Shown piece by piece: positions 215-15,867 of a stretch of DNA of 64,000 bases. The stretch lies in the IMG/VR virus record IMGVR_UViG_3300047560_001287, positions 1 to 64,000 of that record; one strand, 5' to 3'. The stretch comes from a virus. Lineage: Duplodnaviria; Heunggongvirae; Uroviricota; Caudoviricetes. A model generated the notes under the pieces. That model made no database searches and was not told the origin of the DNA. It saw only the letters and a list, made by a program, of their open reading frames with translations. Numbering within the stretch: the first letter of the stretch is position 1; every line of letters begins with the position of its first letter. The position numbers and the translations under genes are program-made.

Positions 215-421
215 ATGGCAAAACCGCAAATCAAACCCAACGCAAAAGTCAATCAAATCTTTGACGATTTAGACAAATATTTAGATTTTTGCCAAGAGTA
301 TGGTTATAAGTATGACGAAGCAGATTTATACAATCAGCGGAGTTATGTGTATCGTCAATTTACTAAGTTTGCTACTAGCAGACCAGTAAAAAATCAATGG
401 GTGGAACACGCACGTCCATGA
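215..421 (+). CDS. hypothetical small protein (68 aa)
   Basis: ORF with AAGGAAA RBS 7 nt upstream; ends with ATGA overlap into next gene. Confidence 0.45.
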   Translation: MAKPQIKPNAKVNQIFDDLDKYLDFCQEYGYKYDEADLYNQRSYVYRQFTKFATSRPVKNQWVEHARP

Positions 422-1173
422 AAATAGTTTTAGTCACTGGTGGATTTGATCCACTACATAGCGGTCATATTGAATATTTCAAAGCCGCAAAACAGTTAGG
501 CGACAAGTTAGTTGTTGGCGTAAACAGTGACGCATGGTTGGCTCGTAAAAAGGGCCAACCTTTTATGCCTATTGCTGAACGTATGTCAATCATTGAGAAT
601 TTAAAAATGGTAGATCATTGTGTTATCTATAACGATGACGATGGTTCTAGCATCGAAGCTATTCGTAATGTAAAAATGATGTATCCAAATGATGAAATCA
701 TTTTTGCTAACGGTGGCGATAGAAATAAAAACAACATTCCAGAAATGGTATTTGATGATGTTAATTTTGTTTTCGGCGTCGGTGGTGAAAACAAAATGAA
801 TTCCAGTTCTTGGATATTGCAAGAATGGAAGCAACCTAAAATAATGCGACCATGGGGATATTATCGTATACTACACGAAGTATCAGGATGCAAAGTTAAA
901 GAACTAACAATTGAACCTGGTCAACGTCTTAGTATGCAAAAACATTTTAAGCGTAATGAATATTGGCTAGTTACACATGGTATGTGTCATGTCAATAGCA
1001 TGATGCCAAATGGTTATGTTTTGCCAGTAACGTTATTAAATGAACATCATAGTAAACATATTCCTAAAGGTGATTGGCATCAGTTAATTAACCCATATGA
1101 AATTCCTTGTCGTATTGTAGAAATACAATACGGTGAAGAATGTGTAGAAGAAGATATTGAGAGAAAAGAATGA
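418..1173 (+). CDS. nucleotidyltransferase (HldE domain II / RfaE-II-like, HxGH motif) fused to type-II phosphomannose-isomerase cupin domain
   Basis: N-term TGGFDPLHSGHIEYF...LGDKLVVGVNSDAWLARKKG matches ADP-heptose synthase domain II. C-term RPWGYY...GQRLSMQKHFKRNEYWLVTHG...EIQYGEECVEEDIER matches ManC-type PMI cupin. Start chosen at ATG 418 (ATGA overlap). Confidence 0.7.
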   Translation: MKIVLVTGGFDPLHSGHIEYFKAAKQLGDKLVVGVNSDAWLARKKGQPFMPIAERMSIIENLKMVDHCVIYNDDDGSSIEAIRNVKMMYPNDEIIFANGGDRNKNNIPEMVFDDVNFVFGVGGENKMNSSSWILQEWKQPKIMRPWGYYRILHEVSGCKVKELTIEPGQRLSMQKHFKRNEYWLVTHGMCHVNSMMPNGYVLPVTLLNEHHSKHIPKGDWHQLINPYEIPCRIVEIQYGEECVEEDIERKE

Positions 1174-2357
1174 GAACACTATATTACATGGGTCTAGAAC
1201 CCTACAAAGCAAGATACACTCTACAACTCACAGAGTGGAATGAGCGTGTCTTTAAGCGTAGAGGTATTGACTATGTAGTAGTACCCGGTGAAACATTATC
1301 TACAGACCAACAAATCGTAACAGGTCAAGTATTAGATGCACATGGTCGTAGTTATTTTGGCATGAGTCAATTAATGACATTGGTCAAGTGGATGAAAGAA
1401 GGAATTGTTACAAGTGAAGATGTTATCTACTTTGAAGATATGTTTCAACCAGGCTTTGAGAGTTTGCCTTATATTCTTAATCAGGTCCCTCAGTCGCATC
1501 GTCCAAAGATTTTTGTTAGATGCTTGGCTCAGTCAATCGACCCTGATGACTTTGTGCATGTATGGGGGATGTCCAAGTGGATGGGGCTATATGAACAGAT
1601 GGTGTGTGAGGCTGTCAGTCAAAGTGGGGGTGCTATCCTTGCGTCTAACGAAGAAATGGTCATGAACATGAAGATTGCAGGTTGGGAAGTTCCAATCTAC
1701 AATATCAGTGGTCTAGCATTTGGTAAACAAGAAGTAATTGAACGAGTTGGTACAATCAAACCATTCAATGAACGCAAACATCGTGTCGTGTTCTCAGCAC
1801 GATGGGATCAAGAAAAACAACCAGACTTCTATATGGATTTAATTGATGCTTGGCACAAACGTCATCCTGGAAGTGGTGTAGAGTTTGCAATTTGTTCAGG
1901 TGCAAAATTAAAAAGTAACAACGATAGTTATATGCAACGCACCCGAAATATGCAGGCTGCAGGAACCTTAACTTTACATGAGGATTTAAACAAAAATGAT
2001 TACTATAATATTGTCAATGATAGTCGTGTTGTTTTTAACTGTGCTTTACAAGATTGGGTTAGTAACACAGTTTCCGAAGCGGACGCTCTTGGTTGCAATG
2101 TGTTGTATCCTGCTTATAGGAGTTTCCCAGAAACTTTTGCAAATGATTATACCAGACTTTACGTACCATGGTCTATTGATGATGCTTTGGACAAACTTGA
2201 AAAGTTATTGAAGAAGCCCAGTGATAACATGGGTAAAATCAGTGACTGGACTGACTTGACTATTGACCGTATCTGTGATATCATTGAGGGGAAGGGTGAA
2301 CAATACCTTCGTATGTCAACCGATTATCGTAAACATTCTAGAGAAAGCAAATACTAA
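1170..2357 (+). CDS. putative GT-B fold glycosyltransferase
   Basis: 395 aa. C-terminal region VVFNCALQDWVSNTVSEADALGCNVLYP resembles the E-x7-E/GT4 nucleotide-sugar binding segment. ATGA overlap with upstream gene. Confidence 0.5.
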   Translation: MRTLYYMGLEPYKARYTLQLTEWNERVFKRRGIDYVVVPGETLSTDQQIVTGQVLDAHGRSYFGMSQLMTLVKWMKEGIVTSEDVIYFEDMFQPGFESLPYILNQVPQSHRPKIFVRCLAQSIDPDDFVHVWGMSKWMGLYEQMVCEAVSQSGGAILASNEEMVMNMKIAGWEVPIYNISGLAFGKQEVIERVGTIKPFNERKHRVVFSARWDQEKQPDFYMDLIDAWHKRHPGSGVEFAICSGAKLKSNNDSYMQRTRNMQAAGTLTLHEDLNKNDYYNIVNDSRVVFNCALQDWVSNTVSEADALGCNVLYPAYRSFPETFANDYTRLYVPWSIDDALDKLEKLLKKPSDNMGKISDWTDLTIDRICDIIEGKGEQYLRMSTDYRKHSRESKY

Positions 2358-2358
2358 T

Positions 2359-3276
2359 ATGTCAACAGAAGTAGTTAAAAACCCTGAGCATGAAAAACTC
2401 ATTGAGATTTTAAAGTTCACTCCGTGTACTTACAAGATTCAATTGTGGGGATATGGTGGTGAATATGTGATGGGTACAGTAGACCGCAAAATATACGACT
2501 ATTTCAAAAGACGCCGTCTTGACATAAGTGACTATGCCTGGGATAGTGACTATGCTAATGACAATCAAATTCCTGAAGATATGCAACCATTCTATCCAGG
2601 TCAATGGCATGACTGTGATGATATGGGTCATCACTGGGGTGTTGACAGAGGCGCAGGCACGTTGCAAATCTTAGACGAAAACGACAATGTAGTTTATGAA
2701 GCCAGTACTGATAACATTGATGGTTACAGTGAAGATAGCCCTGAATGGCGTGGTGGTGACGAGATATGGATTGACATGAAAGATCCAGGCACTGTTGTAT
2801 TCTTAGGAGTAAGCAGTGAGAAAGGTACGTTCTATGAAGGTCACTTAGAACTAAAATCTCCTTTCGATATCACTAAACTTTCACTCGAATATTCAGAGAT
2901 TGATTGTAACGAAATCATCACCGGTGTGTACTATAACGATGAACAAATTGACAACTACGGTGGTGACACTAGTGGCAAGAGTTCAGACTTTGGTTTCTAC
3001 ATTGCAGGCTCTAACAAGCACGATGGTAAGGGATACGAGAAGTATTCAAACATGGATGACATTGTTTATCCATTGACTGACTGGTTCCCTAAAAAAATCA
3101 AACCAGTCCGTGAAGGTATATATAATGTAAAGACTGCTGGTAAGAATAGTTATACATATCAAGCAAAGTGGACTGGTGATAAGTGGATCAAGACATGGAA
3201 TGATGAAGAAGTGAAAATTAAAGAGTGGCAGGGAATTAGTATCGATCCAGATTTAGAGGAGACAACAAATGGCTGA
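2359..3276 (+). CDS. hypothetical protein (305 aa), acidic, Trp/Tyr-rich
   Basis: Long ORF. Start set to first ATG after upstream stop. Confidence 0.5.
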   Translation: MSTEVVKNPEHEKLIEILKFTPCTYKIQLWGYGGEYVMGTVDRKIYDYFKRRRLDISDYAWDSDYANDNQIPEDMQPFYPGQWHDCDDMGHHWGVDRGAGTLQILDENDNVVYEASTDNIDGYSEDSPEWRGGDEIWIDMKDPGTVVFLGVSSEKGTFYEGHLELKSPFDITKLSLEYSEIDCNEIITGVYYNDEQIDNYGGDTSGKSSDFGFYIAGSNKHDGKGYEKYSNMDDIVYPLTDWFPKKIKPVREGIYNVKTAGKNSYTYQAKWTGDKWIKTWNDEEVKIKEWQGISIDPDLEETTNG

Positions 3277-3775
3277 GTGGAGCGTAAAACCCCAGTGGAA
3301 GAAATCAATTATTGAGCGCCAAGAATGGACTAAAGATGGACAATCATTCATCTATGAAACAGGTTGGCGCGGTGGTGAGTTTACTGTATACACAGATGAT
3401 GACAATCCCCCAGACATTGAAGCAGGTGTAGATATCTATAACTGTGACTATGAAACTGAACTTGTAGAAACATTTGATGGATGCTGGGACGATTATGATT
3501 TCGACGGTTGTGATGAAGAAACACAAGCGTGGCTAGAAGAATTCCTAGAAGAAAATTCTGTATTTGATTTGGAAGAACACGGTTGGTATAGCAATGATAC
3601 TGAAATGATTATTGATTGCGACTTAATCATTGAACGCATCGACGGTGACGAAGAACAAATTATTCACACTGGTCAACCAGAAGAAGAAGTCTTACCTGAA
3701 CTTGCACCTATTGTAGAAGAAAGAGCAAAATGGCCCTTCACTAGACCACAAGAAGGCACTAAGGAGGAAGAATAA
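3269..3775 (+). CDS. hypothetical highly acidic protein (168 aa)
   Basis: ORF overlapping upstream by 8 nt. About 30 percent Asp+Glu. Confidence 0.5.
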   Translation: MAEWSVKPQWKKSIIERQEWTKDGQSFIYETGWRGGEFTVYTDDDNPPDIEAGVDIYNCDYETELVETFDGCWDDYDFDGCDEETQAWLEEFLEENSVFDLEEHGWYSNDTEMIIDCDLIIERIDGDEEQIIHTGQPEEEVLPELAPIVEERAKWPFTRPQEGTKEEE

Positions 3776-4002
3776 TGGCACGAAAGAAAAAAGAAGTATT
3801 GGCTAACGAACCATCAGGTGGTTGGCCCGTAATTAGTCAAGGTCAACACCTGACCGTAAAGACTTTTGAAGATGGTTCAACTGAACTTGTTTGGGACGAT
3901 GAAGCATTATTGGAAGCAGTAAGAGAAGCAATTGCCTCTGTAGAAACAGAAGAAGCGAAAGCAAAACCAAAACCAAAGCGTAAATCAAAGGAGAAAAAAT
4001 GA
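3775..4002 (+). CDS. hypothetical small protein with Lys-rich tail
   Basis: TAATG overlap start. C-term KAKPKPKRKSKEKK. Confidence 0.4.
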   Translation: MARKKKEVLANEPSGGWPVISQGQHLTVKTFEDGSTELVWDDEALLEAVREAIASVETEEAKAKPKPKRKSKEKK

Positions 4003-4190
4003 GCGCACATAACGATATCAACACACACTTGGAAGCATATTTAGCAGAGAGTGAAAAATTTGAAAAGGGCAACAATGCCGCAGGTACACGTGCCCGCAAA
4101 GCATTAGCAGAACTAGCGAAAGCAGTTAAGGCTCGCCGTAATGAAATTACTGCTGAAAAAACTGCACGTAAAGAAGCGAAGGCAAAATAA
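3999..4190 (+). CDS. histone H1-like / KA-rich small basic DNA-binding-type protein
   Basis: 63 aa. AAGTRARKALAELAKAVKARR...KTARKEAKAK low-complexity basic helix. Confidence 0.4.
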   Translation: MSAHNDINTHLEAYLAESEKFEKGNNAAGTRARKALAELAKAVKARRNEITAEKTARKEAKAK

Positions 4191-4191
4191 A

Positions 4192-4383
4192 ATGTCAAAA
4201 CTAAACAAACTCGCAAAAGTAAATGAATCTATCAGTGTCAATCGGTATGATAACGGTTTTATGGTAGAAATCGGAGGTCGTGATTCAGATTCAGATTGGA
4301 AGAATTGTAAAATTCTTTGCAACACGGAAGAAGAAATGATCGCCGTAATCAAAGAGTGGAATTCTAAAGAACTCGACAACTGA
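4192..4383 (+). CDS. hypothetical small protein (63 aa)
   Basis: Internal ATG immediately after upstream stop. Confidence 0.4.
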   Translation: MSKLNKLAKVNESISVNRYDNGFMVEIGGRDSDSDWKNCKILCNTEEEMIAVIKEWNSKELDN

Positions 4384-4450
4384 GTATAAATACATGTGCT
4401 ACACAACGGTAGCACATTTCAATTTTCATATCCGCGTAAGGAAGGATTCT

Positions 4451-5131
4451 ATGAGTTATAACAAAACAAAAACCGACCCTGAGTTGGGTCAACAAGTGCA
4501 TGAGCACTTAGTCAAAATGGGTGTAGAAACACCAATCAACAAACGCAACATCGACCGCAAGGATCAAATTGCAGGCATCGAAGGTCACTTCACTGAAATC
4601 ATGCGTATCTTAGGATTAGACTTAACTGATGATAGTTTAACTGAAACACCTAAGCGTGTTGCTAAAATGTATGTTAATGAAATTTTCTGGGGTCTAGATT
4701 ATGAAGCATTTCCAAAGTGTACTACAGTTGATAACAAAATGCACTACAACGAAATGGTCGTTGAACGAAACGTTTCAGTCCAAAGTAACTGCGAACATCA
4801 CTTTGTCGTTATTGATGGCTTGGCTACAGTTGCTTATGTTCCTAAGCAGAAAGTCCTTGGCTTATCGAAGATTAATCGAATTGTCGAGTATTTTAGTAAA
4901 CGACCTCAGATCCAAGAACGTCTTACCGAGCAAATCTTCCACACACTTCAGTTCATTCTTGAAACTGAAGATGTTGCAGTCCTCATTGACGCACAACACT
5001 ATTGTGTTAAATCAAGAGGTGTTGAAGATACGGGATCCAGCACAGTTACATGCCGATTGGGTGGCGGTTTCAAAACAGATCCATCTGCACGTGGTGAGTT
5101 CTTACAAATTGCTAACAAAGGATGCAAATGA
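4451..5131 (+). CDS. folE: GTP cyclohydrolase I
   Basis: AAGGAAGGA RBS. CEHHFV catalytic motif, VAKMY, C-terminal STVTCRLGGGFK. Full-length FolE-type alignment by eye. Confidence 0.9.
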   Translation: MSYNKTKTDPELGQQVHEHLVKMGVETPINKRNIDRKDQIAGIEGHFTEIMRILGLDLTDDSLTETPKRVAKMYVNEIFWGLDYEAFPKCTTVDNKMHYNEMVVERNVSVQSNCEHHFVVIDGLATVAYVPKQKVLGLSKINRIVEYFSKRPQIQERLTEQIFHTLQFILETEDVAVLIDAQHYCVKSRGVEDTGSSTVTCRLGGGFKTDPSARGEFLQIANKGCK

Positions 5132-5322
5132 TTGAATTTCTTTCAAACATGAGTTTATTACTTGGAATGATTATTGAACAAGCAGTTTACATATTTTTAT
5201 TTTGTGTGGCGGGCTTGTTCATGTTTTATACTATAAAGAACACACCAGATAGTGCTTGTACAGGTAACTGCAATCAAGGTCGTAACTGTAACTGCAAGGA
5301 GAAGAAAGATGGGATTTCGTAA
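5122..5322 (+). CDS. small membrane protein with Cys-rich tail
   Basis: One predicted TM helix then CTGNCNQGRNCNC. Confidence 0.3.
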   Translation: MQMIEFLSNMSLLLGMIIEQAVYIFLFCVAGLFMFYTIKNTPDSACTGNCNQGRNCNCKEKKDGIS

Positions 5323-5545
5323 ACCAATGGACTACAATCAAGTGCATCATCAAATCTATATGGCAGGTGTAGAAATGAGTAGCAAATACAATGACGGTTT
5401 CACTCAATGGGAAATCAAAAAAGATTTGTATAAACTCAAATGGATGTTGGATCAGATTATGAAAGATAGTCCTACATTCGCTGATGAAGAACAATTCTTA
5501 AAAGAGAATGAACAGCGTGTAATGTGGAAGACTTTAAAGTTATGA
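5309..5545 (+). CDS. hypothetical protein (78 aa)
   Basis: AGGAGA RBS before ATG 5309. Confidence 0.4.
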   Translation: MGFRKPMDYNQVHHQIYMAGVEMSSKYNDGFTQWEIKKDLYKLKWMLDQIMKDSPTFADEEQFLKENEQRVMWKTLKL

Positions 5546-5847
5546 CTAAAACAAGCGTTGAACTAATACAAGAGGCTGCTGAAAGAATCATAAATGATCC
5601 AGTAGAACTTAAAAAGTTCATGCGACATATTCTAGGTCCTAATCGTAGGAAAATCACAGGTCAAGAACATGACCACATGTTAACTGTATTTGCTTTAGTA
5701 GAACCAATTGAATCAAGTAACAATCAAAGATCATGGACAGATGTATATGAACATGCAGGTAAAACTTATCATGTTCATTACTTTGAAGATGAAACAGAAA
5801 TAGAAGAAATACTACCAGATGATATTCAACAAGATAAAACAACTTAA
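5542..5847 (+). CDS. hypothetical protein (101 aa)
   Basis: ATGA overlap start. Confidence 0.45.
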   Translation: MTKTSVELIQEAAERIINDPVELKKFMRHILGPNRRKITGQEHDHMLTVFALVEPIESSNNQRSWTDVYEHAGKTYHVHYFEDETEIEEILPDDIQQDKTT

Positions 5848-6280
5848 AGAAGCAGGCAAAAAGATTGGCATTACATTCTCAACTTTTGACTTACTTCACG
5901 CAGGGCACATTGCTATGTTGGCTGAGGCTAAAAATCATTGTGACTACCTTATTGCAGGACTCCAAACTGACCCCACTATCGACAGACCAGATACGAAGAA
6001 TAAACCTGTACAGTCAATTGTGGAGCGACAAATACAATTGGCATCGTGTCGTTTTGTTGATGAAGTTGTTGTATACTCAACCGAACAAGACCTCATCGAC
6101 CTTCTCCTCATCCTTCCAGTTGACGTTAGAATACTCGGTGTCGAATATCAAAGTCAGGACTTTACTGGTAGAAAAGAAGGGACCGAAAAAGGTATAGAAC
6201 ACGTGTTTAACTCTCGTGACCATAGTTTCTCAAGTTCTAGTTTGAGAAAAAGAGTAGCTGAATCTGAAAATGGTAAATAA
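5819..6280 (+). CDS. cytidylyltransferase, TagD-like (glycerol-3-phosphate cytidylyltransferase family)
   Basis: GITFSTFDLLHAGHIAMLAEAK...YLIAGLQTD...RFVDEVVV aligns motif-for-motif with TagD ITYGTFDLLHWGHIKLLERAK...RYVDEVI. Confidence 0.75.
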   Translation: MIFNKIKQLKEAGKKIGITFSTFDLLHAGHIAMLAEAKNHCDYLIAGLQTDPTIDRPDTKNKPVQSIVERQIQLASCRFVDEVVVYSTEQDLIDLLLILPVDVRILGVEYQSQDFTGRKEGTEKGIEHVFNSRDHSFSSSSLRKRVAESENGK

Positions 6281-6354
6281 CATAAACCGGTCTTATGGGC
6301 TCACCCCGGTATATAAATTCTGCGTCCTATGCTAAAATTAACATAGGAGAAAAT

Positions 6355-6858
6355 ATGCATAATCCAATTACATACAAATACACAAGCACAAAAGAATACC
6401 ACGATGCGTTTCCGTGTGCTTATCGTCAATGGCGTGCAGACAGCCATTGCAACACAATTCATGGTTACAGTTTCAGTATGAAATTCTATTTCGGTACAAA
6501 CGATTTAGATGCCCGTAACTGGGCTGCCGACTATGGTGGTCTAAAAGAATTGAAGAAGTTCTTGGAAGATCAATTCGACCACACACTTATCGTAGCACAA
6601 GATGATCCAGAAATGGAAACATTCAAACTATTACAAGAAAAGAAGATGGCTAAAATCATCGTCTTGCCTGCGTTAGGTTGTGAAGCACTAAGTGATATGC
6701 TATACAAGTATGTCAATGGTGTTTACATTCCTGAGATGTGGGGTGAGGGAGAAGCAAAAAGACTTTGGTGCTACCGTGTAGAAGTACGGGAGACTCAAAG
6801 CAATATGGCTTTCAGAGAAGGTCATAGAGAGTGGAATGAAGATTTATTTAAGGAGTAA
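6355..6858 (+). CDS. queD: QueD-like 6-carboxytetrahydropterin synthase (PTPS/T-fold family), atypical metal ligands
   Basis: AGGAGA RBS. SHCNTIHGYSF matches Cx3HGH motif but second His is Tyr. FDHTLIVAQDD matches the LDHHYLND region. Confidence 0.7.
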   Translation: MHNPITYKYTSTKEYHDAFPCAYRQWRADSHCNTIHGYSFSMKFYFGTNDLDARNWAADYGGLKELKKFLEDQFDHTLIVAQDDPEMETFKLLQEKKMAKIIVLPALGCEALSDMLYKYVNGVYIPEMWGEGEAKRLWCYRVEVRETQSNMAFREGHREWNEDLFKE

Positions 6859-6860
6859 AA

Positions 6861-7481
6861 ATGTTTTCATTATTTAAAGACGTAGATAAGAAAATGATGG
6901 CAATGCTTGCAGTATTGCACGTTATTGTTATTATAATTTCAAACGCATTGGTTTCAATCCCAGTTGAAATCTTAGGTGTTAAATTAACTTGGGCGGCATT
7001 TACCTTCCCATTAGTTATTTTGGCAACAGACTTGACAGTCCGTTTACTAGGTAAAGGTATTGCACGGGCAACTATTGCGGCAGCATATCCATTTGCTATC
7101 TTAGGTAGTATTGCAGTTGTATTGTTAGAGGGAGCACCTCAATCAGTAGCATTGCGTATTGGTTTTGCTAGTGCAACAGCATACTTAGTAGGTACACTAC
7201 TTGATGTATATGTATTCCAATATGTCCGTGAGAAGTTCACTAAGCAATGGTGGGCGGCTCCTGCATTATCAATGATTGCCGCAAACTTTATTGATAGTTA
7301 CACATTCTTCAGTGTTGCATTCTATCAAAGTGCAGACGAATACATGGCGGCTAACTGGAGTGAAATTGCATTGAGTCAAACTATCCTAAAGATTGCAGTA
7401 GGTATTATTGTGTTCTTACCAGCATATGGTGTTCTATTGAACTTCTTAAAGAAGCGTATACACGATACTGACCAAGGATAA
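6861..7481 (+). CDS. yhhQ: YhhQ/DUF165-family queuosine-precursor (preQ0/preQ1) transporter
   Basis: AGGAG RBS. About 6 TM helices. N-terminal LAVLHVIVIIISNALVSIPVEILG typical of the family. Confidence 0.75.
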   Translation: MFSLFKDVDKKMMAMLAVLHVIVIIISNALVSIPVEILGVKLTWAAFTFPLVILATDLTVRLLGKGIARATIAAAYPFAILGSIAVVLLEGAPQSVALRIGFASATAYLVGTLLDVYVFQYVREKFTKQWWAAPALSMIAANFIDSYTFFSVAFYQSADEYMAANWSEIALSQTILKIAVGIIVFLPAYGVLLNFLKKRIHDTDQG

Positions 7482-7639
7482 TGAAGAACATTTGGCGTTT
7501 ATGGGCGAAAGCCCTTGGCGAAAAATCAGGTGATACGGATCAGGAAGCTGACCGTATCGCTTTGATTAGAACCTGCATTGTGCTAACATATATAGTCACA
7601 AATATTTTTATTGTTGCAGGCGTTATAAGGCATTGGTAA
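7481..7639 (+). CDS. small hydrophobic protein (52 aa)
   Basis: Fills otherwise empty gap. TAATG start and TAAATG end couplings. Not in supplied ORF track (<60 aa). Confidence 0.3.
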   Translation: MKNIWRLWAKALGEKSGDTDQEADRIALIRTCIVLTYIVTNIFIVAGVIRHW

Positions 7640-8194
7640 ATGAATATAGTAATTACAGGGCATATGGGTGGTATTGGTTTAGAATTTGCCACTCAGTTAA
7701 GAAATGCAGGTCATGTGATACATGGTTATGATTTGCTAAATGGCTATAATGTAGTTGACAGTCACACGCAAGATTTAATACTTGAACAGTTAAAATCGTG
7801 CGATGTGTTTATTAATAATGTTTATGGTGAATCACAACTTGAATTATTAAAGAAGGCAACAGCATCTTGGTTGGGTTTTAAAAAGTTAATAGTAAACATG
7901 AATAGTAAAAAGGTGTTAAAGGATCCTTCATTGATTGTTCCGGGCACACAAGAATCAAAATATTATACGGAAAAAATGAATCAAATGGTTTTCGCTAGAC
8001 AACATGCTAACACCAAAAAGACACCATTGATAATGTCAGTTTTTCCAGGATGGATTGATACAAAAGCCGCAGATACGTCTGGCGAAAATCCAACTGATAG
8101 AATGAAAGTAAGTACACTGGTAAAAACAATAGTACCATATATTGAAGATTTTTCCGAGTTCTATTTACAAGAAATGGTTATTGATTTATCATAA
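7640..8194 (+). CDS. short-chain dehydrogenase/reductase-like (compact, 184 aa)
   Basis: N-terminal ITGHMGGIG Rossmann motif. YYTEK fits YxxxK. Confidence 0.55.
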   Translation: MNIVITGHMGGIGLEFATQLRNAGHVIHGYDLLNGYNVVDSHTQDLILEQLKSCDVFINNVYGESQLELLKKATASWLGFKKLIVNMNSKKVLKDPSLIVPGTQESKYYTEKMNQMVFARQHANTKKTPLIMSVFPGWIDTKAADTSGENPTDRMKVSTLVKTIVPYIEDFSEFYLQEMVIDLS

Positions 8195-8213
8195 AGAATT
8201 ATGAAAGAAAGAA

Positions 8214-9056
8214 ATGGCAGAGTTAAAAATAGCTGAATTATTTTATAGCATTCAAGGTGAAGGACGTTATATGGGCGTTCCTTCTGTGTTTTTGAGAACA
8301 TTTGGGTGCAACTTCAAATGTGAAGGCTTCGGTATGCCTAGAGGTCAAACTAGTAATGAAAGGTTTACAATTGATGCAGATAGTATTACAGAGTATAAAA
8401 ATTTACCGTTGGTGTCTACGGGCTGTGATTCATATGCTTCATGGGACCCTCGTTTCAAGCATCTTAGTCCTATGCTCAATGTTAATACTATTGCCGATAG
8501 CATTATTGATTTACTTCCTCATGGTCGTTGGATGGATGAACACTTGGTTATTACTGGGGGTGAGCCACTTCTTGGATGGCAAAGAAGCTATCCTGAATTA
8601 CTTTCGAACGAAAAAATGAGGGCTCTCAAAGAGTTAACATTTGAGACTAACGGAACACAACATTTGAGTGAAGAATTTAAAGAATTCTTGCAACTTTGGA
8701 AAAGAAATAGAGAAAAGAATGCACTAACTTTTAGTGTAAGTCCTAAATTATCAGTAAGTGGAGAAAAGTATAATGAAGCAATTTTGCCTAATGTTATACG
8801 TCAATACCAAGATGTGGGTTTTGTATACCTTAAGTTCGTGGTGGCTTCAGAAGAAGATGTATTGGAAGCTGAAAAAGCTACACAAGAATACAAAAACTGC
8901 GGATTCAAAGGTCCAGTCTACTTGATGCCCGTTGGTGGTGTTGAAAGTGTTTACGAAATGAACGCAAAGAATGTAGCATTGGCAGCAATGAAACGTGGCT
9001 GGCGTTATAGTGATAGATTGCAAGTGCCATTATTTAAAAATGAATGGGGAACATGA
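8214..9056 (+). CDS. queE: 7-carboxy-7-deazaguanine synthase (radical SAM)
   Basis: ELFYSIQGEGRYMGVPSVFLRTFGCNFKCEGF matches QueE N-terminus and Cx14CxC-type cluster motif. Confidence 0.85.
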   Translation: MAELKIAELFYSIQGEGRYMGVPSVFLRTFGCNFKCEGFGMPRGQTSNERFTIDADSITEYKNLPLVSTGCDSYASWDPRFKHLSPMLNVNTIADSIIDLLPHGRWMDEHLVITGGEPLLGWQRSYPELLSNEKMRALKELTFETNGTQHLSEEFKEFLQLWKRNREKNALTFSVSPKLSVSGEKYNEAILPNVIRQYQDVGFVYLKFVVASEEDVLEAEKATQEYKNCGFKGPVYLMPVGGVESVYEMNAKNVALAAMKRGWRYSDRLQVPLFKNEWGT

Positions 9057-9262
9057 TGGCAGAGACACACAAACGAACAGTAGTTAGAATGATTACCTAT
9101 CGCTTATCAGCGTGGTTACTCACAATACCAATAATGTATTGGCTTACTGGTAACTTAGAAGAATCAATCGGGAGTTCAGTTCTGATTCACATACTTCTAA
9201 GTATAGATTACTATATACACGAACGCATATGGCTCAAAGTTAAATGGGGTAAAATTGAATGA
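9053..9262 (+). CDS. small membrane protein
   Basis: ATGA overlap with queE. Two hydrophobic segments. Confidence 0.35.
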   Translation: MMAETHKRTVVRMITYRLSAWLLTIPIMYWLTGNLEESIGSSVLIHILLSIDYYIHERIWLKVKWGKIE

Positions 9263-9498
9263 TCGATGTTCCAGAATATCAAGAAATCGACCTTAATGAG
9301 TACGAACGCAAAACTCGTGCTTGGGAACTGAAGTTCTGTTGGTTACCACAACGTTGTATTGAAACAATGCAGGTTATGTGGCTACAGTTTGCTTATCGTG
9401 GTTATAAGGCTCGTAGATATGATACGCAAATTATCGATTCGTATAAATGGATGTGCAAAGAAGAATTTATTATTTTGAGATTAAAAGGTGAGGTATGA
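9259..9498 (+). CDS. hypothetical protein (79 aa)
   Basis: ATGA overlap couplings on both sides. Confidence 0.35.
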   Translation: MIDVPEYQEIDLNEYERKTRAWELKFCWLPQRCIETMQVMWLQFAYRGYKARRYDTQIIDSYKWMCKEEFIILRLKGEV

Positions 9499-10850
9499 AA
9501 ACATATAAGAAAAGAATTGCGTTTTTAATTAGTGACCAACATTTTATCCCGCATGGTGGCATTGGTAGTTTCTGTAAGAGTTTTACAGAAATGTGTGGTC
9601 GGATTGGTTGGAAAGTAGATATTCTTTTAGACAAGGCTCCTACAGGTGGGTTTGATAAAGTGATTGAGGCTGCTGGTGCCAACATTATTTGGCCACTAGA
9701 ACCACTACGTTATAGTGACCACACTGCTACATTTGCGTTTAGTGATACAATCAACTTTGAAAAGATTATTAATTTCCGTAACAGCATCTTAGAAGCATTT
9801 GAAGAAAATCTCTATGACATGATTTTGTGCAACACGCAGGAAGCAATGAGTGCGGCTTATGCGATGACTTTGAATAAAGATATCCCTGTGATTTTCTATA
9901 CTCATTTACACAGTATGATTTTCCGTTCAGGTCAAGGTAGTGATGTGTTCTTAGATAGTTATCACAACTTCTACAACAAACATATGGAATTTCCTGATAT
10001 CTTTATCGGCACTCAATCACTGAAAAACAAAATAGAATTAGAAAGTCATGGTTCAAAATATGTAAGTATTTTACAGATGCCATTGAGTGAGCGTGGGTTA
10101 CTAGAGCCTAGTTATAAGAAACGCAGGGGTGTATTGTTTATTGGTCGATGGGAAGAAGGTAAGAACCCAGAAGCATATATCAAAGCGATGAAAGAATCAG
10201 GATTACCCTGCAAAGTTATGACTAACAGTAACGGACAAAAGAAGTTCGAGAAGGCTTTTGCAGAGAATGGTATCACTGACTACGAAATCAAAGCAGGGAT
10301 TACTGGACAAGAGAAAGTAGACTTTATTAAAAGTTGTGCAGTATTTTTTATGCCTAGCTTGCGTGAAAACTTTCCGTTCGCATTCTATGAATGTTTAGGA
10401 CACATGCCTAGCGTAGTGTTAGACACACAAGATTGGTCTGAGAATTTCCTACACATCTACTATTATAGAACTAACATGGATGAAGTTTCTGACACGTTAA
10501 AAAGATTACACGACACATCTAATCCAGAAAAATATTACAAAACAGGAGCGTTAGAATATGTCAAGTCTATTGACACTGATACTGTTCAGTCTTGGATTGA
10601 TTTTATTGACGGGTATGAAGGTAGAAAAGCAAAATCTAATCAAGCTAAAATCAATGAATACGAAACAGTGAAATACGCTGACTATATCAAAGAGTTAAAT
10701 CGTAAACATTTAGCGAGAGAAGATTTTGAAAGTGTGTTAACCAATAGACATAAATTCAACGTCATTTATACGGACAATCACACTTATCTATCAAAAGATG
10801 CTACCTTTGTACCAGACGAAGAAGAAACTAACTTATTTGAGGGACTATGA
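9495..10850 (+). CDS. GT-B glycosyltransferase (GT4-like)
   Basis: GGTGAGG RBS. RGVLFIGRWEEGKN...SLRENFPFAFYECLGHMPSVVLD resembles GT1/GT4 donor-binding segment. Confidence 0.65.
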   Translation: MKTYKKRIAFLISDQHFIPHGGIGSFCKSFTEMCGRIGWKVDILLDKAPTGGFDKVIEAAGANIIWPLEPLRYSDHTATFAFSDTINFEKIINFRNSILEAFEENLYDMILCNTQEAMSAAYAMTLNKDIPVIFYTHLHSMIFRSGQGSDVFLDSYHNFYNKHMEFPDIFIGTQSLKNKIELESHGSKYVSILQMPLSERGLLEPSYKKRRGVLFIGRWEEGKNPEAYIKAMKESGLPCKVMTNSNGQKKFEKAFAENGITDYEIKAGITGQEKVDFIKSCAVFFMPSLRENFPFAFYECLGHMPSVVLDTQDWSENFLHIYYYRTNMDEVSDTLKRLHDTSNPEKYYKTGALEYVKSIDTDTVQSWIDFIDGYEGRKAKSNQAKINEYETVKYADYIKELNRKHLAREDFESVLTNRHKFNVIYTDNHTYLSKDATFVPDEEETNLFEGL

Positions 10851-11671
10851 AAAAGATTTTAATTACAGGCAACTCGGGATATATCGGTAGTCATCTGACT
10901 AAGATGTTACAAGATGAATATGAAGTTCATGGGCTTGACATTAATCCACCGCAACTACTCCCCAAGACGCATCACACGATTGACATTCGTAAATTGTTTA
11001 ATATTGAAGAAGAATATGATGCCGTTATTCACTTAGCCGCATTAGTTAATGTGGGTGAGAGCGAACAAATACCCATTCAGTATTACATCACAAACTTGAA
11101 TGGTACAATGAATGTGATTAACAAAATCAAGACAAAGAACTTTATCTTTGCTAGTACAGGTGCCGCAGTTGGATGTGAGAGTGCATACGGTATTAGCAAA
11201 AGAGCCGCAGAAGATGTAGTTGGAGAATATTGTACAACCCATCGCCCGACACCATATACAATCTTTAGATTTTATAATGTTATTGGAAGCACCGTCGTGG
11301 CTCCCACTAACCCCGATGGATTAATGTACAATTTAATGAAGGCCCGAGAAACAGGAGAATTCACTATTTTCGGTAAGGACTATGATGCAAGTCCTGATGG
11401 AACTTGTATTCGTGACTATGTACATGTCAATGAGATTTGTGATGCATTAAAGCAAGCAATAGAGAAACCAAGTAATAGTGTTGAATCATTGGGACATGGT
11501 GTTGGATATACTGTTCGTGAAATTGTCAATAAATTTATGGAAGTAAACGATTGTGACTTTGATGTAAAGTATGGACCTAGAAGAAAAGGTGATCTTGCTG
11601 TTTCTGTATTAGAAGATGTTTCACCTTATATGCGTAACTTGTATACGATGGAAGAGTTGTTAAAAGTTTAA
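10847..11671 (+). CDS. NAD-dependent nucleotide-sugar epimerase/dehydratase
   Basis: ILITGNSGYIGSHL Rossmann motif. YGISK catalytic YxxxK. Extended-SDR length. Confidence 0.8.
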   Translation: MKKILITGNSGYIGSHLTKMLQDEYEVHGLDINPPQLLPKTHHTIDIRKLFNIEEEYDAVIHLAALVNVGESEQIPIQYYITNLNGTMNVINKIKTKNFIFASTGAAVGCESAYGISKRAAEDVVGEYCTTHRPTPYTIFRFYNVIGSTVVAPTNPDGLMYNLMKARETGEFTIFGKDYDASPDGTCIRDYVHVNEICDALKQAIEKPSNSVESLGHGVGYTVREIVNKFMEVNDCDFDVKYGPRRKGDLAVSVLEDVSPYMRNLYTMEELLKV

Positions 11672-12360
11672 CGATAATATTGATTCATAACATTGCTGTT
11701 GAATCCCACATCAACTACAACTGGTTTACCTTGATACATGCCCCAATTAGCGGCTCTGTTAAAATCACCCAATTCAACATCAAACGAATTCTTCAAGTCA
11801 GCGAAGTCGTTAACATATTGCAGGAAGATTTCATTGTCATCTTCACTGTTACCATAGAACTGATTTTTTTCAAGAATGTCGTCCAGTACACTACGTGAAC
11901 GTTGTCCATATTCATTTAATTGAGCTTGTGCGGCCATAACTAAATCAACAAGACCATAACATTTCATTATGTTACACAATTGTTTCTCACTAGCTTTAGT
12001 GGCCATTTCAGTGTGAATCCAACTAGGTTCACGATTTTCTTCATCATAGTCAATGATTGGTATTAGTATACCTAACTGTTTTGCATATCCATCACTAAGA
12101 ATATCTGCCTCAACACTGTTCTGTGCTAGACCTTTTTGATTCTTAGCAATCTTTAATACAGTAGGACGACCTTCATACTCAATAACAGTAGCAACACGAC
12201 TTGATCCGGTGCCTAATTTTTTAGCACGTTCTAACGCATAGGCTAAACGACTTTTGAACGTAGTAGCTTGCTGACGCATTGATGCAGGATCCCAATCCGC
12301 AGGTAGCGGCATCTCATCGATAATTCTAGCTTCTTCTTTGATAAACTCACTTGCTCTCAT
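11668..12360 (-). CDS. protein-kinase-like fold protein (atypical)
   Basis: LGTGSSRVATV glycine loop, VLKIAK (VAIK-like), VVVDVGF (DFG-like). Catalytic loop not canonical. Confidence 0.4.
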   Translation of the reverse strand: MRASEFIKEEARIIDEMPLPADWDPASMRQQATTFKSRLAYALERAKKLGTGSSRVATVIEYEGRPTVLKIAKNQKGLAQNSVEADILSDGYAKQLGILIPIIDYDEENREPSWIHTEMATKASEKQLCNIMKCYGLVDLVMAAQAQLNEYGQRSRSVLDDILEKNQFYGNSEDDNEIFLQYVNDFADLKNSFDVELGDFNRAANWGMYQGKPVVVDVGFNSNVMNQYYR

Positions 12361-12367
12361 CTAGTAT

Positions 12368-13663
12368 TTATCTAAAAAACGTTTCAAAGTCCGAATATTC
12401 AGGAAAAATTTCAACGAAGGACTCGTTCCTATTCGCATCGAGCCATTTATCTACTTCCCAGTAACTAGTAAAATCTTCTGCATCAAGGTTCAATCTACCT
12501 AAAATACCATTAAATGACTGTATCGTAAAGTCCGGGTGTGTATTACTATTAAATTCAGGAAAATACCAATTAGTATTGGCACTGGGTAATGTACGTAAGT
12601 ATTCAATATGGTCTTTGTATATTTTAGACAAATTATCTTTATGATGTTTTGGTAGATTTTTAATATCGTAATGTTCAGGGTTAGACACAATAGAATATAT
12701 GAAAAAATCATAAGGTCCTATTAATTTTTTATCTATCCATTCACGATGGAAATCAACTATGTTATATGCGTTGAATATGTTTATAGTAGAATTTATTGAA
12801 AATTTTACATTAGGTAGTTTTTCAATCATAAGTTCTCTGTTTTTTACAATATCATTCCATACTAGATTTTTTCGTATGTATTCTCCTCGCTTGTAATTAG
12901 CATCTAAACTAGCACCCACACGTAAATTTGTAAATTTACTCCAATAATTTATTACTCTTTTGATATTTGTAAAATTTGTAGAATAGTTTATTTCTACATC
13001 AGTTTTTCCGTTGTCAATTAAATATTCCAAAATTTGATAATGAACGTCATTTACAAGCGGTTCACCACCTGCAAAGTATATTTTTTCAACAGTTCGTAAG
13101 TCGTTTTTGATTGATTCAATATTTTCTAAACCAGTTAACCTTTTCATATGAATAGGTCTACGCATTATTTTTTTAAAAACAGGTATTTCTTTGAATAGTG
13201 ATGCTGTCTCATTACTCCAACTAGAACTAAACACACTGCTACAGTATCTACATCTGAGATTACATGTATTATCAATCATTAAATCCAAATATAATATTTT
13301 TGGATTGTCTAAAGAATAATCAAGGTTGATATTATCTTTGGTATTTTTTATAAAATCTTTTTTGAATTGTTCTACCATACCTTGACGGTAAGACCTAATT
13401 CCAGTGCGTTCTGTTTCGTAGCATCTTTTGCACTCTACAGATGGTTTGATGTTAATTATATTTTCCCTCATCTGTTTTATCTGATTAGAATTATAAGAAT
13501 TCGGGTCTGAATAATGTAGTAGAGGTTGGGTTCTATTTATTACACAACATGGGCTAACAGTGCCATCTGTGTTTATGTGTTTATTTGAGAACGGGGCTGG
13601 GCAGAAATATTCGCTATTGGTTATTAAATTACAGTCATCTTCCGAAATTGATAATTTATTCAT
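12368..13663 (-). CDS. radical SAM enzyme with N-terminal SPASM-like cysteine domain
   Basis: Central CNLRCRYC (Cx3Cx2C) and GGEPLV. N-terminal CPAPFSNKHINTDGTVSPCC...CKRC matches SPASM CxxPW..DG.V.PC consensus. Confidence 0.75.
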   Translation of the reverse strand: MNKLSISEDDCNLITNSEYFCPAPFSNKHINTDGTVSPCCVINRTQPLLHYSDPNSYNSNQIKQMRENIINIKPSVECKRCYETERTGIRSYRQGMVEQFKKDFIKNTKDNINLDYSLDNPKILYLDLMIDNTCNLRCRYCSSVFSSSWSNETASLFKEIPVFKKIMRRPIHMKRLTGLENIESIKNDLRTVEKIYFAGGEPLVNDVHYQILEYLIDNGKTDVEINYSTNFTNIKRVINYWSKFTNLRVGASLDANYKRGEYIRKNLVWNDIVKNRELMIEKLPNVKFSINSTINIFNAYNIVDFHREWIDKKLIGPYDFFIYSIVSNPEHYDIKNLPKHHKDNLSKIYKDHIEYLRTLPSANTNWYFPEFNSNTHPDFTIQSFNGILGRLNLDAEDFTSYWEVDKWLDANRNESFVEIFPEYSDFETFFR

Positions 13664-13693
13664 AAAATTATTTATTGCGGATAAATTACTATT

Positions 13694-14248
13694 TTATAAA
13701 CTCTTACCCCATCGTGTGTTGACAACGTTCCAGTTAATAATCTTCCACTGTTCTTTCAGATACTTTTTCTTGTCTGAGCCATAATCAAGTATCCAAGCAT
13801 GTTCCCACCAATCAACTAAAAGTAGTATGTCGTTGCGAACTTCATGGTTTTTAATGGTCTTGATTGAACCGTCGTATGCTAAGTAGACCCAACCACTACC
13901 TTCAATTTTCATTGCTTCTTCTTCAAATTTGTCTTTGAAATCTTCCCATGAACCAAAATGTCTTTTAATAAATCCTTCGATAGGACCGTTTGGTTTGTTG
14001 TTGTTTCTTAACTCGCGGAATTGAGGGAACAATGTATTATGTAAGAATGCTCCTGCATAATTAAATTCTCTGTCGCCTTCTTTTTTGTTATATCGTTCAG
14101 CATAACCATGCGCTAACTTGCCATAGTGCAAATCAAGTGTGTCTTTAGACATAACCGGACTTACTTCTTTTGGCTCAAAGTTCAGAGCAATGATTTCTAT
14201 ATCTTGAGGTTTACTTTTATCCTCAAGTAACTGAATAATATCACGCAT
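13694..14248 (-). CDS. sod: Fe/Mn superoxide dismutase family protein (compact)
   Basis: LHYGKLAHGY, FLHNTLF, GSGWVYLAY, DWWEHAW. All four metal-ligand positions (H, H, D, H) present. Confidence 0.75.
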   Translation of the reverse strand: MRDIIQLLEDKSKPQDIEIIALNFEPKEVSPVMSKDTLDLHYGKLAHGYAERYNKKEGDREFNYAGAFLHNTLFPQFRELRNNNKPNGPIEGFIKRHFGSWEDFKDKFEEEAMKIEGSGWVYLAYDGSIKTIKNHEVRNDILLLVDWWEHAWILDYGSDKKKYLKEQWKIINWNVVNTRWGKSL

Positions 14249-15819
14249 TAGTGTTTCAATAATAGTGTCGCAATGATGTTAGGATCGTTAGCACTGATAT
14301 CACCTTCACCTGGTGCTACGATTACGTTGTATTTCATACCAGCAGGTATTGACTTACGTTTAGCCATGTACTCATCATAACTCAATATAGAGTTAGCACT
14401 CAATCCATACTGTTTAGCAAGACGTTGTTTTAGTTCAGGTAACTTGTCAGGTTGCACTTGCCATTGGCCTTCTGGCCCCTTAACCAAGTTCTTCTTTGCG
14501 TCCTTAACTAATAAATCTTGGAACAATTCATCTGGAACGATGCGACTGTTCTTTGTTGTATCTAATGATGGATCTTGTGCCTTAACTTGTTTCTCTTGTG
14601 AAGTGTGGGCACCTTCACTCCAGTTGATAATGAAGTTGGCTGGCTTCTTAGCTAATGCGGCACCGGCCATCTTTGTGTACGCATAGAACTTAGTATCAGG
14701 GTGCTTTGCGGCCATCTTTAATGCTAAGTCTAAATATTCTGGACTAAAGAAGTCACCGGCGTCATGCCAACGAATTGTTGTTTGCCAACCATTAGGAAAC
14801 TTTTTATCACCCTTTTTACCTGCGGCTTCTTCCGCGGAAATCTCATTACTTAATTGATTGAAGAAACCGTCTGGGTCATTCAATAGATATGTTAAGATAC
14901 GACCATCACTTAACCAAGCGGCTTTGAATTGAACTTTACCGCCCTTCATAGCGAAACAATCAACTTTACATGAACCAGCTCCAGGACATGTATTAACAAT
15001 GATTAGTTTGTTTGTATCTTCATCTAATGCAATACCTGTTAATGCCGCAAAGCCAACGTTGAAGAATTGTTCAAACTCTCCATTACTGTGCTTCATCTTT
15101 TCGTTTTGTTTTAGTAACTTCTTTGGACGTTCTGCTAATGCTTGTTTGATTTTATCTTCACTGTATGTCTTTCCATCTGGTCCTAAGTATTCAATTACGC
15201 TTGAACGATGGATATAAGGCATTTTATATCTGTCTGATTTTGTTTTACCAGATTTATATTTTTCAATGCCCTTCTTATCTACTTTAACGTTACCTTCTTT
15301 GTCAAGATCAGGTGTACCAACGATACGTTTCATGTAGTCTTGAAATTCATCACCACCAAATTCACGACTTTGTGCTGGTAGTTTAGTTGCTTCATCTAAG
15401 CCAGATAGTTCGCGGATTCTTAATAGATGTTGTTGACCTTCATCTAAATCTAATTCACTATGTCTAAATGCTATTGTATCTCTACCGTCATCGTCCCCAA
15501 TACGATATACATATACTCCGGCATCATCATCACCGGACTCATCAGGGCCAATTTCCCAACCCATTACTTCTAATGTTTTTTGGGCTTTATCCATTTGTTG
15601 TTCGGTACCGTTCCACCACTGTGCGGCTAATTTGCGTAATACTTCTTCCTCGTCAGGTTCACGGTCATCGCCACCAGGAGGTGCAAATTCGTCTATCTTT
15701 TCTTCTCCGGGCATATCACCAGCTTTAGCAACGAATTGCTGAGGTGTCATAATTTGGATGCCTTTTGGGGCTCCTGGCATGTTTGGCTCAGTGCCTTCCA
15801 TTAATTGTCTGATTTTCAT
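14248..15819 (-). CDS. large hypothetical protein (about 524 aa) with CPGAGSCKVDC segment
   Basis: Long ORF. Start set to internal ATG 15819 because the called start 15885 overlaps the divergent promoter. Function unrecognised. Confidence 0.5.
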   Translation of the reverse strand: MKIRQLMEGTEPNMPGAPKGIQIMTPQQFVAKAGDMPGEEKIDEFAPPGGDDREPDEEEVLRKLAAQWWNGTEQQMDKAQKTLEVMGWEIGPDESGDDDAGVYVYRIGDDDGRDTIAFRHSELDLDEGQQHLLRIRELSGLDEATKLPAQSREFGGDEFQDYMKRIVGTPDLDKEGNVKVDKKGIEKYKSGKTKSDRYKMPYIHRSSVIEYLGPDGKTYSEDKIKQALAERPKKLLKQNEKMKHSNGEFEQFFNVGFAALTGIALDEDTNKLIIVNTCPGAGSCKVDCFAMKGGKVQFKAAWLSDGRILTYLLNDPDGFFNQLSNEISAEEAAGKKGDKKFPNGWQTTIRWHDAGDFFSPEYLDLALKMAAKHPDTKFYAYTKMAGAALAKKPANFIINWSEGAHTSQEKQVKAQDPSLDTTKNSRIVPDELFQDLLVKDAKKNLVKGPEGQWQVQPDKLPELKQRLAKQYGLSANSILSYDEYMAKRKSIPAGMKYNVIVAPGEGDISANDPNIIATLLLKH

Positions 15820-15838
15820 ATCGTTAATCCGTAAATAG

Positions 15839-15867
15839 TTGACTTTATTGCGTAATTGTGATACACT
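15839..15867 (+). promoter_or_regulatory. sigma70-like promoter (TTGACT-17-TACACT) for uvdE
   Basis: Seen in divergent intergenic region 15820-15896. Confidence 0.4.

Follow-up and report, generated by a model that had tools for sequence, protein, structure and literature searches.

The enzymes closest to the gene described here come from two directions. Mannose activation is carried out by the type-II bifunctional phosphomannose isomerase (PMI)/GDP-mannose pyrophosphorylases ManC, CpsB, AlgA and XanB (TIGR01479), in which a cupin follows a GlmU/RmlA-type nucleotidyltransferase (NTase). The HENases, represented by HldE domain II and HldC (TIGR02199), are NTases of another fold, for which mono-domain, di-domain (kinase/NTase) and tri-domain (SIS/kinase/NTase) architectures have been described (PMC11573728) and whose hallmark is the motif (F/L)xxGxSTT (PMC11573728, PMC11461863). 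The window analyzed here, 64,000 nucleotides (nt) making up positions 1 to 64,000 of the IMG/VR virus record IMGVR_UViG_3300047560_001287 (Caudoviricetes), encodes near its left end a single protein that combines a HIGH-motif NTase with a ManC-like PMI cupin. Comparative genomics makes it reasonably probable, with appreciable room for doubt, that this fusion is a compact analogue of ManC/CpsB/AlgA for mannose activation, carried as an optional phage cassette that supplies a glycosyltransferase (GT) module. The gene and its parts are as follows, with lengths in amino acids (aa).

418..1173, + strand: NTase-PMI cupin fusion gene, a single uninterrupted open reading frame (ORF) of 251 aa
418..828, + strand: HIGH-motif (cytidylyltransferase-fold) NTase domain, residues 1-137 (PF01467, PDB sequence matches, AF2 model)
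457..468, + strand: H14-S-G-H17 (HxGH), the signature by which the fold binds NTP; in the family H14 does not vary and H17 is conserved to at least 90%
799..813, + strand: N128-S-S-S-W132, at the RTxGISTT/GxSTT position of relatives (family alignments)
835..1170, + strand: type-II PMI cupin domain, residues 140-251 (PF01050, TIGR01479, Foldseek)
931..966, + strand: PMI/cupin motif 1, S172-M-Q174-K-H176-F-K-R179-N-E181-Y-W183, with predicted metal ligands Q174, H176 and E181 and a predicted catalytic Arg
1063..1092, + strand: cupin motif 2, P216-K-G-D-W-H221-Q-L-I-N225 (PxGxxHxxxN); the invariant H221 is predicted to complete the metal site as its fourth ligand

The ORF runs from an ATG at 418 to a TGA at 1171-1173 with no frameshift or in-frame stop. 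Its start is placed at 418, not at the upstream ATG at 397, because homologues begin with the same MKIV... as the ORF read from 418. At its 5' end the start ATG overlaps the stop of a 68-aa ORF (ATGA), and at its 3' end the stop overlaps a possible ATG (1170) of a downstream GT gene, again as ATGA. The two halves are joined as one gene in thousands of independent assemblies and the fusion is therefore no sequencing artefact; with a single-frame ORF here as well, a frameshift or two-gene explanation is ruled out. The original prediction, made from the letters of the window, had proposed a fused two-domain polypeptide, and Pfam does place PF01467 and PF01050 on the one 251-aa ORF, where the motifs it quoted, TGGFDPLHSGH...LGDKLVVGVNSD and GQRLSMQKHFKRNEYW, are found. 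It had named two outcomes that would speak against it, halves separated by a frameshift and a cupin from an unrelated family; the frame is intact, and the C-terminal half is assigned to the PMI family. Its contrast with ManC, in which a GlmU-type NTase is swapped for a HIGH-motif one, agrees with the domain composition, and with both domains in one ORF, isomerization and nucleotide activation would indeed lie on one polypeptide.

The cupin is of the ManC PMI type. PF01050 (MannoseP_isomer) matches residues 140-250 with 89.9 bits (cutoff 23.6, E 1.7e-25) over model positions 10-114 of 116, and the C-terminus of GMP_PMI (TIGR01479, model positions 356-461) matches residues 139-250 with 84.9 bits against a cutoff of 372.95; as a whole the protein is thus not a full-length ManC/GMP_PMI equivalog, and its sequence contains no GxGTRxxP signature. 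The residues expected of a PMI cupin (S172, Q174, H176, R179, E181, W183, P216, G218, H221, and N225) are all present, and motif 1 (Q-x-H-x4-E-x6-G) and motif 2 (P-x-G-x2-H-x3-N) are spaced canonically, so that Q174, H176, E181, and H221 are predicted to bind metal. Q174, H176, R179, E181, and W183 stay invariant down to 35% identity and H221 in all family alignments, while S172 is at least 90% conserved, with Lys in its place in one divergent member. The equivalents of S172 and R179 have been reported to be important in type I and type II PMIs (summarized in PMC9602691). Divergent members also retain the ManC tail, EDDI(V)RFEDxYGR. Given the retained PMI motifs, cupin spacing, and ManC tail, the domain is evidently a descendant of the PMI domain of ManC.

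Searched alone against PDB by sequence, the cupin half returned only chance matches. The AlphaFold2 (AF2) model of the fusion, with a mean pLDDT of 86.5, pairs a Rossmann-like alpha/beta domain with a C-terminal beta-barrel, and the barrel, compared as a single domain, is structurally closest to 7zvm, a PMI of Thermococcus barophilus (TM 0.87, root-mean-square deviation (rmsd) 1.7 A; Foldseek). For the whole model the top Foldseek matches are to CapF, a Rossmann-plus-cupin bifunctional NDP-sugar enzyme, and from these it might be supposed that the cupin epimerizes or keto-isomerizes the NDP-sugar product, in the manner of CapF, RmlC, or FdtA. Such a role is highly improbable, as the CapF alignments have an rmsd of ~16 A and reflect domain order only, and it sits poorly with a PF01050 match of 90 bits, the PMI catalytic motif, the ManC C-terminal tail, and the match to 7zvm.

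In the N-terminal half, PF01467 (CTP_transf_like) matches residues 6-87 with 55.5 bits (cutoff 21, E 9e-15; Pfam) and TIGR00125 scores 55.9 against a cutoff of 27.7, which together with H14-S-G-H17 identifies a HIGH-motif NTase. None of the catalytic motifs of the protein, in either half, is disrupted. Its sequence matches in PDB are ECT (3elb), 3glv, HldC (5x9q), and TagD (1coz), and PHROGs recognizes the N-terminal half alone (phrog_7878). An alignment of the phage protein with bacterial members and with members linked to Gmd, the GDP-mannose 4,6-dehydratase (37-63% identity), has as its invariant NTase residues G8, G9, F10, D11, P12, H14, G16, H17, N36, D38, K44, K45, G46, R55, N98, G99, G100, D101, R102, E109, G122, K126, and S129-S131. 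Invariant in the cupin are W146, G147, K161, S172, Q174, H176, R179, E181, W183, G188, H221, E235, G239, E244, D246, and R249, and every invariant residue is common to the phage protein and the Gmd-linked members. Most of the same residues are also invariant in a second alignment (35-73% identity), in which F10, G16, H17, D38, G46, F49, N98, E109, S129, S131, W146, S172, G239, and R249 are instead at least 90% conserved; S130 is invariant across the family alignments.

The family that best matches the NTase is rfaE_dom_II (TIGR02199; NCBIfam), with 80.6 bits over residues 2-110, and the HxGH, NSD...KG (NSDxxxxxKG), and GGD motifs are common to the fusion and HldE domain II. These similarities, with those to HldE itself, PHROG 7878, and HldC 5x9q, raise the alternative of an NDP-heptose route, in which the cupin would stand in for GmhA by isomerizing sedoheptulose-7-P to D-glycero-D-manno-heptose-7-P and the NTase would produce ADP-, CDP-, or UDP-heptose from heptose-1-P. 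The ketose-to-manno-aldose chemistry would be identical to that of a PMI, and viral HENases are known (PMC11573728). The rfaE_dom_II score, however, lies far under the equivalog cutoff of 181.5, and its alignment spans only model positions 12-114 of 144, about the first two-thirds. At the hallmark (F/L)xxGxSTT (STTR5 region) the fusion reads G-E-N-K-M-N-S-S-S-W (family form K-x-N-S-S-S-W), no known HENase architecture includes a cupin, and no kinase, phosphatase, or SIS isomerase is seen among the ORFs of the phage module. Among the larger ORFs of 418-16000, those scanned with Pfam and NCBIfam, no GmhA, HldA, or GmhB was detected. The identity of the gene partners, described below, also bears on this alternative.

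Fusions of this kind are found well beyond the present window. At least 8000 near-full-length homologues occur among 5.8 billion proteins, the best 120 of which are all 247-261 aa long, 70-100% identical, and composed of the same two Pfam domains. An exhaustive hidden Markov model search of 1.84 billion cluster representatives returned 402 at E <= 1e-30; coverage was full-length in more than 100 of the best 150 representatives, and the architecture recurs in more than 100 distinct clusters at 50% identity. Confirmed copies number at least 587 in IMG/VR and at least 514 in a collection of species-representative genomes (full-length identity 37-56%), the latter recovered with a diverse alignment where a single-protein query had returned nothing. 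The fused form is present in none of 50,697 deposited phage genomes, in which the halves are separate genes. Chromosomal carriers include the complete SAR86 chromosome CP097968.1 and many single-amplified and metagenome-assembled genomes of SAR86 and Pelagibacteraceae, alongside Legionellales, Flavobacteriales, Dadabacteria, Thermodesulfobacteriota, Chloroflexota, Woeseia, and several Patescibacteria. The original prediction had regarded the architecture as unusual, a description that does not survive its abundance in marine and freshwater phages and its chromosomal occurrence in SAR86, SAR11, Patescibacteria, Dadabacteria, and others. No curated NCBIfam model or solved structure was found for the NTase-PMI cupin fusion, nor did a literature search find a description of it, and by its domain content it would represent a very widespread, uncharacterized ManC-like enzyme with a different NTase fold.

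The substrate is indicated chiefly by gene partners. Clustering covered every ORF up to 5 kb from the gene in 165 loci, with Gmd and Fcl counted only when at least 45% identical to an equivalog-verified Gmd or Fcl. An SDR cluster that includes true Gmd is the family most often shared between the loci of viruses and those of bacteria; several SDR neighbors were GalE-like rather than Gmd and were left out of the Gmd count. A neighboring cluster annotated as UDP-Glc/GDP-Man dehydrogenase was likewise excluded from the GDP-mannose evidence, its members being UDP-glucose-dehydrogenase-like and not GDP-mannose dehydrogenases. Of 80 bacterial loci, 14 have Gmd no more than ~2.5 kb from the gene, often abutting it, in at least four phyla (Dadabacteria/Thermodesulfobacteriota, Gamma- and Alphaproteobacteria, and Patescibacteria). 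Against the TIGR01472 cutoff of 415 these Gmd proteins score 452 (Dadabacteria), 585 (Saccharibacteria), 575 (a gammaproteobacterial metagenome-assembled genome), and 596 (a gut alphaproteobacterium), and Fcl proteins score 505 and 495 against a cutoff of 500 (NCBIfam). One locus is ordered gmd-fcl-fusion, as in colanic-acid clusters. In five of the 14 Gmd-linked loci the NTase occurs without the cupin, so that the association with Gmd belongs to the NTase as well; NTase-only relatives are also found beside Gmd/Fcl.

The partnership extends to covalent linkage. In Patescibacteria UBA918 (L068 3413-5410) the NTase, cupin, and Gmd form a single 665-aa ORF that is followed by Fcl, and NTase-cupin-Gmd proteins of 614-665 aa make up seven distinct 90% clusters from independent NCBI, JGI, ENA, and Logan assemblies; a 571-aa NTase-Gmd form is present in Nomurabacteria. 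The Gmd part of the tri-domain protein scores 528 bits (E 3e-157) against solved GDP-mannose dehydratases, compared with 118 bits against the GDP-heptose 4,6-dehydratase 7us5. Canonical ManC was found in the flanks of none of the 80 bacterial loci, including none of the 14 Gmd-linked ones, and a GlmU/RmlA-type NTase signature in only one of the 80, the Gmd-linked L085, as a 297-aa RmlA-like ORF without a PMI motif. The fusion is thus the only visible source of GDP-mannose in these gmd/fcl clusters. The Gmd and Fcl neighbors, the NTase-cupin-Gmd fusion, and the lack of a nearby canonical ManC argue together for a GDP-mannose product. The heptose route, which draws solely on sub-threshold similarity, is contradicted by the missing STT motif, the lack of heptose-pathway partners among the scanned ORFs, and dehydratase partners specific for GDP-mannose with Fcl beside them, and is rather improbable; the HldE-type label and heptose substrate first given to the gene, a reading that PHROG's label also implies, are doubtful on the same grounds.

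For the mannose reading a pathway of four steps can be proposed from comparative genomics. The ~350-aa GlmU/RmlA-type guanylyltransferase of ManC would have been replaced by a HIGH-motif NTase of ~135 aa. The cupin, binding a divalent metal through Q174, H176, E181, and H221, would interconvert fructose-6-P and mannose-6-P, and a host phosphomannomutase (PMM) would convert the latter to mannose-1-P. The N-terminal domain (H14xGH17, K44/K45, R55, G99-G-D-R102, S129-131) would then join mannose-1-P to an NTP, most likely GTP, to give GDP-mannose, and the translationally coupled GT downstream would transfer the product sugar to an acceptor. As a phage cassette, the fusion would free the GT module from the donor-sugar supply of the host.

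Several points weigh against this proposal. Both the nucleotide and the sugar are assigned from genomic context only, and the nucleotide is the weakest link because ATP or CTP is the substrate of those relatives in the fold that have been characterized: the nearest by sequence act on ATP and beta-heptose-1-P (HldE/HldC) or on CTP (TagD, ECT). We know of no member of the HIGH-motif fold that uses GTP. No Gmd, Fcl, or PMM was found in the window, and proteins of the phage clade share only 38-46% identity with the Gmd-linked ones, so that a shift in specificity is conceivable in phages. In SAR86 the gene stands in the context MetK-x-AhcY-CysD-CysNC and in SAR11 in PolA-x-MFS-PEPCK, conserved housekeeping positions that fit a housekeeping enzyme and are silent on substrate; in some SAR86 loci it lies instead beside LegC-type and UDP-Glc-DH-type genes. 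The same fold and pathway might yield another product, CDP- or ADP-mannose or a GDP-aminosugar for a legionaminic-acid-type pathway, with the phage GT using a non-canonical donor. This would suit the ATP and CTP preference of HIGH-fold relatives, the LegC-family aminotransferase (528 bits) and LegB-like SDRs adjoining the gene in some SAR86 loci, and the extra NTase and GalE-like SDR that the phage module has of its own. It remains unlikely in view of the fusion and adjacency, in several phyla, to Gmd and Fcl, which require GDP-mannose, and of the fully conserved PMI motif, which argues for a Man-6-P intermediate.

In the phage itself, the putative mannose-activating fusion is followed by a GT gene and by genes of 7-deazaguanine synthesis, as listed here.

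215..421, + strand: small upstream ORF, 68 aa, which couples directly to the GT in relatives without the fusion and so marks where the cassette is inserted
1170..2357, + strand: GT-B-like glycosyltransferase, 395 aa (389 aa if read from M7, nt 1188), with weak PF00534/PF13524 (GT4-family) matches
3999-4190, + strand: small lysine-rich ORF, the counterpart of the PF07432 (Hc1, chlamydial histone H1-like) gene of syntenic contigs and conserved between GT and FolE
4451-5131, + strand: FolE
5819-6280, + strand: second NTase, RfaE-II-like, 33% identical to the fusion NTase
6295-6858, + strand: QueD/PTPS
6861-7481, + strand: Vut_1/YhhQ membrane protein (queuosine-precursor transporter family), E 1e-22
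8214-9056, + strand: QueE-like
9495-10850, + strand: GT1, 451 aa
10847-11671, + strand: GalE-like SDR

The downstream GT, the presumed NDP-sugar consumer, has at least 8000 homologues, and its true start may lie 15 nt further on, at M7, because conservation begins there. Its AF2 model is poor (pLDDT 56.7), a PDB profile search gave no matches, and with the tools used no similarity to T4-type DNA glucosyltransferase or QTMAN was detectable. Module partners were scored in IMG/VR loci of this 395-aa GT family. Of 50 loci, 48 have FolE within 5 kb of the GT and 46 have QueD; among the 39 with enough flank, 33 have QueE, 34 the SDR, 26 the second GT, and 29 the second NTase. Only 3 of 80 related GT loci carry Vut_1/YhhQ. 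The fusion and the GT abut in 26 of 75 IMG/VR loci. In the close relative L171 (GT 89% identical) the small upstream ORF couples straight to the GT without it, which marks the fusion as a clean presence/absence cassette within a conserved GT and 7-deazaguanine module. The only cultured phage with the 395-aa GT is Synechococcus phage BUCT-ZZ01 (63% identity; L167 1233-8167), whose locus holds the same kind of module (QueE, QueD, FolE, and a homologue of the 451-aa GT) without the fusion; the module also occurs in loci L168-L246. Phages of other lineages have different GT-like genes (GT8-like clusters) after the fusion, and on a 64.5-kb IMG/VR contig (L147 4047-6182) it continues in frame into ~460 more residues, 711 aa in total, which by eye resemble two GT domains, one GT8-like with DxD and one GT25-like. 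The consistent theme in phages appears to be the supply of donor sugar to a phage glycosyltransferase.

A gene of this kind might instead be a purely auxiliary metabolic one, its PMI redirecting the fructose-6-P/mannose flux of the host, as proposed for the MPI (mannose-6-phosphate isomerase) of cyanophage S-SCSM1, with no link to the neighboring GT. Stand-alone phage MPI cupins exist and have been read as flux genes (PMC9602691), and the presence of the fusion in a minority of GT-module loci could be taken in the same sense. This explanation is very unlikely, as it accounts neither for the obligate joining of the cupin to a conserved NTase nor for the coupling with the GT through ATGA, the GT genes 3' of the fusion in other lineages, or the 711-aa protein of L147.

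The composition of the module hints at sugar decoration tied to 7-deazaguanine chemistry. The 395-aa GT keeps company with FolE, QueD, QueE, the second GT, and the SDR, and the set of both GTs, FolE, QueD, and QueE recurs in BUCT-ZZ01; on this basis the fusion could be imagined to feed GDP-mannose to GTs that decorate a 7-deazaguanine base, either within phage DNA or as a nucleobase of preQ0/CDG type, a speculative extension to which we give little credence. Glycosylated preQ0 natural products offer a chemical precedent for a glycosylated 7-deazaguanine. Were the extension true, it would amount to a glycosylated deazapurine hypermodification so far undescribed in viruses, comparable to the natural products huimycin and dapiramicin or to the mannosyl-queuosine of eukaryotic tRNA. 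The QueC PP-loop motif (SGGxDS) was not found in the window. Upstream of the module in relatives is a 488-517-aa protein (L171 7669-9135; L002 5515-7068; L005 5572-7116) without a Pfam match but with a GDSGGFQ motif resembling TGT/DpdA; its relatives in annotated phages are only hypothetical proteins of PA5oct-like jumbo Pseudomonas phages, Phosso, and Vibrio 2.275.O. With no PDB or annotated relative behind it, identification of this DSGGFQ protein as DpdA is unsupported. Its gene would lie just upstream of the window start.

The source is evidently an uncultured marine jumbo myophage. In syntenic contigs, PolB is most similar (42-49% identity) to its counterparts in the jumbo myophages Phosso, Atu_ph07, Vibrio 2.275.O, RaK2, and 121Q, and related contigs reach 195-466 kb. 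Elsewhere the window encodes ClpX (zinc finger plus AAA_2; 39235-40437, + strand) and ClpP (270 bits; 44759-45352, + strand), a DNA ligase, an SPFH/Band-7 protein (19085-19936, + strand), and a fatty-acid desaturase-family protein (33643-34368, + strand). The genes at 12368-16931 form an unusual accessory run: a minus-strand radical SAM protein with a twitch domain (NF033640, 312 bits), a minus-strand Fe/Mn superoxide dismutase, a protein with a GP88 domain, and the UV endonuclease UvdE. Tandem paralogues, at least three ORFs of ~255-265 aa (56204, 58274, and 59005) with the C-terminus ...K(E/T)KMPW(I/L), lie within 56204-59802 (+ strand), and the ORF at 57500 resembles them at its N-terminus; 61423-62046 and 62043-62780 form a second paralogous pair. 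An HAE...PCxxC signature of dCMP/CMP deaminases was noted, by eye only, at 52202-52741 (+ strand), and if real such an enzyme would argue against a hydroxymethyl-cytosine genome.

Confirmation of GDP-mannose as the product would have several consequences. The fusion would be a second, non-homologous answer for the guanylyltransferase half of ManC, contained in an enzyme of ~250 aa and used by streamlined ocean bacteria that rank among the most abundant (SAR11, SAR86), candidate phyla radiation (CPR) bacteria, and many phages. Widespread labels such as 'ADP-heptose synthase / heptose kinase-adenylyltransferase' and 'cytidyltransferase-like' would be corrected, part of the 'mannose-6-phosphate isomerase' signal in marine viromes would be explained, and a minimal scaffold for making GDP-mannose would become available.

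Among described systems, ManC/CpsB/AlgA/XanB share with the fusion the PF01050 cupin, the SxQxHxxRxExW motif, and the EDDIxR tail. Like the fusion, ManC joins the same two non-consecutive pathway steps and leaves PMM out, and its genomic partners, gmd and fcl, are those of the fusion family, though not of this window. The two differ in the NTase, which in ManC is a ~350-aa GlmU/RmlA-type domain (PF00483) within a protein of ~470-480 aa and in the fusion a ~135-aa PF01467 domain within 251 aa. HldE domain II and HldC have the same fold as the fusion NTase and are its best-scoring characterized family, but the fusion has KxNSSSW in place of (F/L)xxGxSTT, no kinase or SIS partner seen in the module, an attached PMI cupin, and gene partners from GDP-mannose metabolism. 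The TagD/ECT/CCT cytidylyltransferases also share the HIGH-motif fold (PDB sequence matches of E 4e-12 to 5e-5 over residues 1-76), and they differ in their small phospho-alcohol substrates, their RTxGISTT motif, and the lack of a cupin. CapF of S. aureus likewise has a cupin after a nucleotide-binding alpha/beta domain, but its N-terminal domain is an SDR and not an NTase, and at 11-12% identity there is no sequence relationship. In deposited cyanophages, unlike the fusion, the NTase and cupin are separate genes at different loci. The 'heptose kinase/adenylyltransferase' of P-TIM68 (gp149) and S-SSM7 is an NTase alone, that of P-TIM68 being 51% identical to residues 3-143 of the fusion and located in the same PolB-UvsX region, between PolB and UvsX, and MPI cupins of the S-SCSM1 ORF118 type stand alone and are 31-41% identical to residues 138-251.

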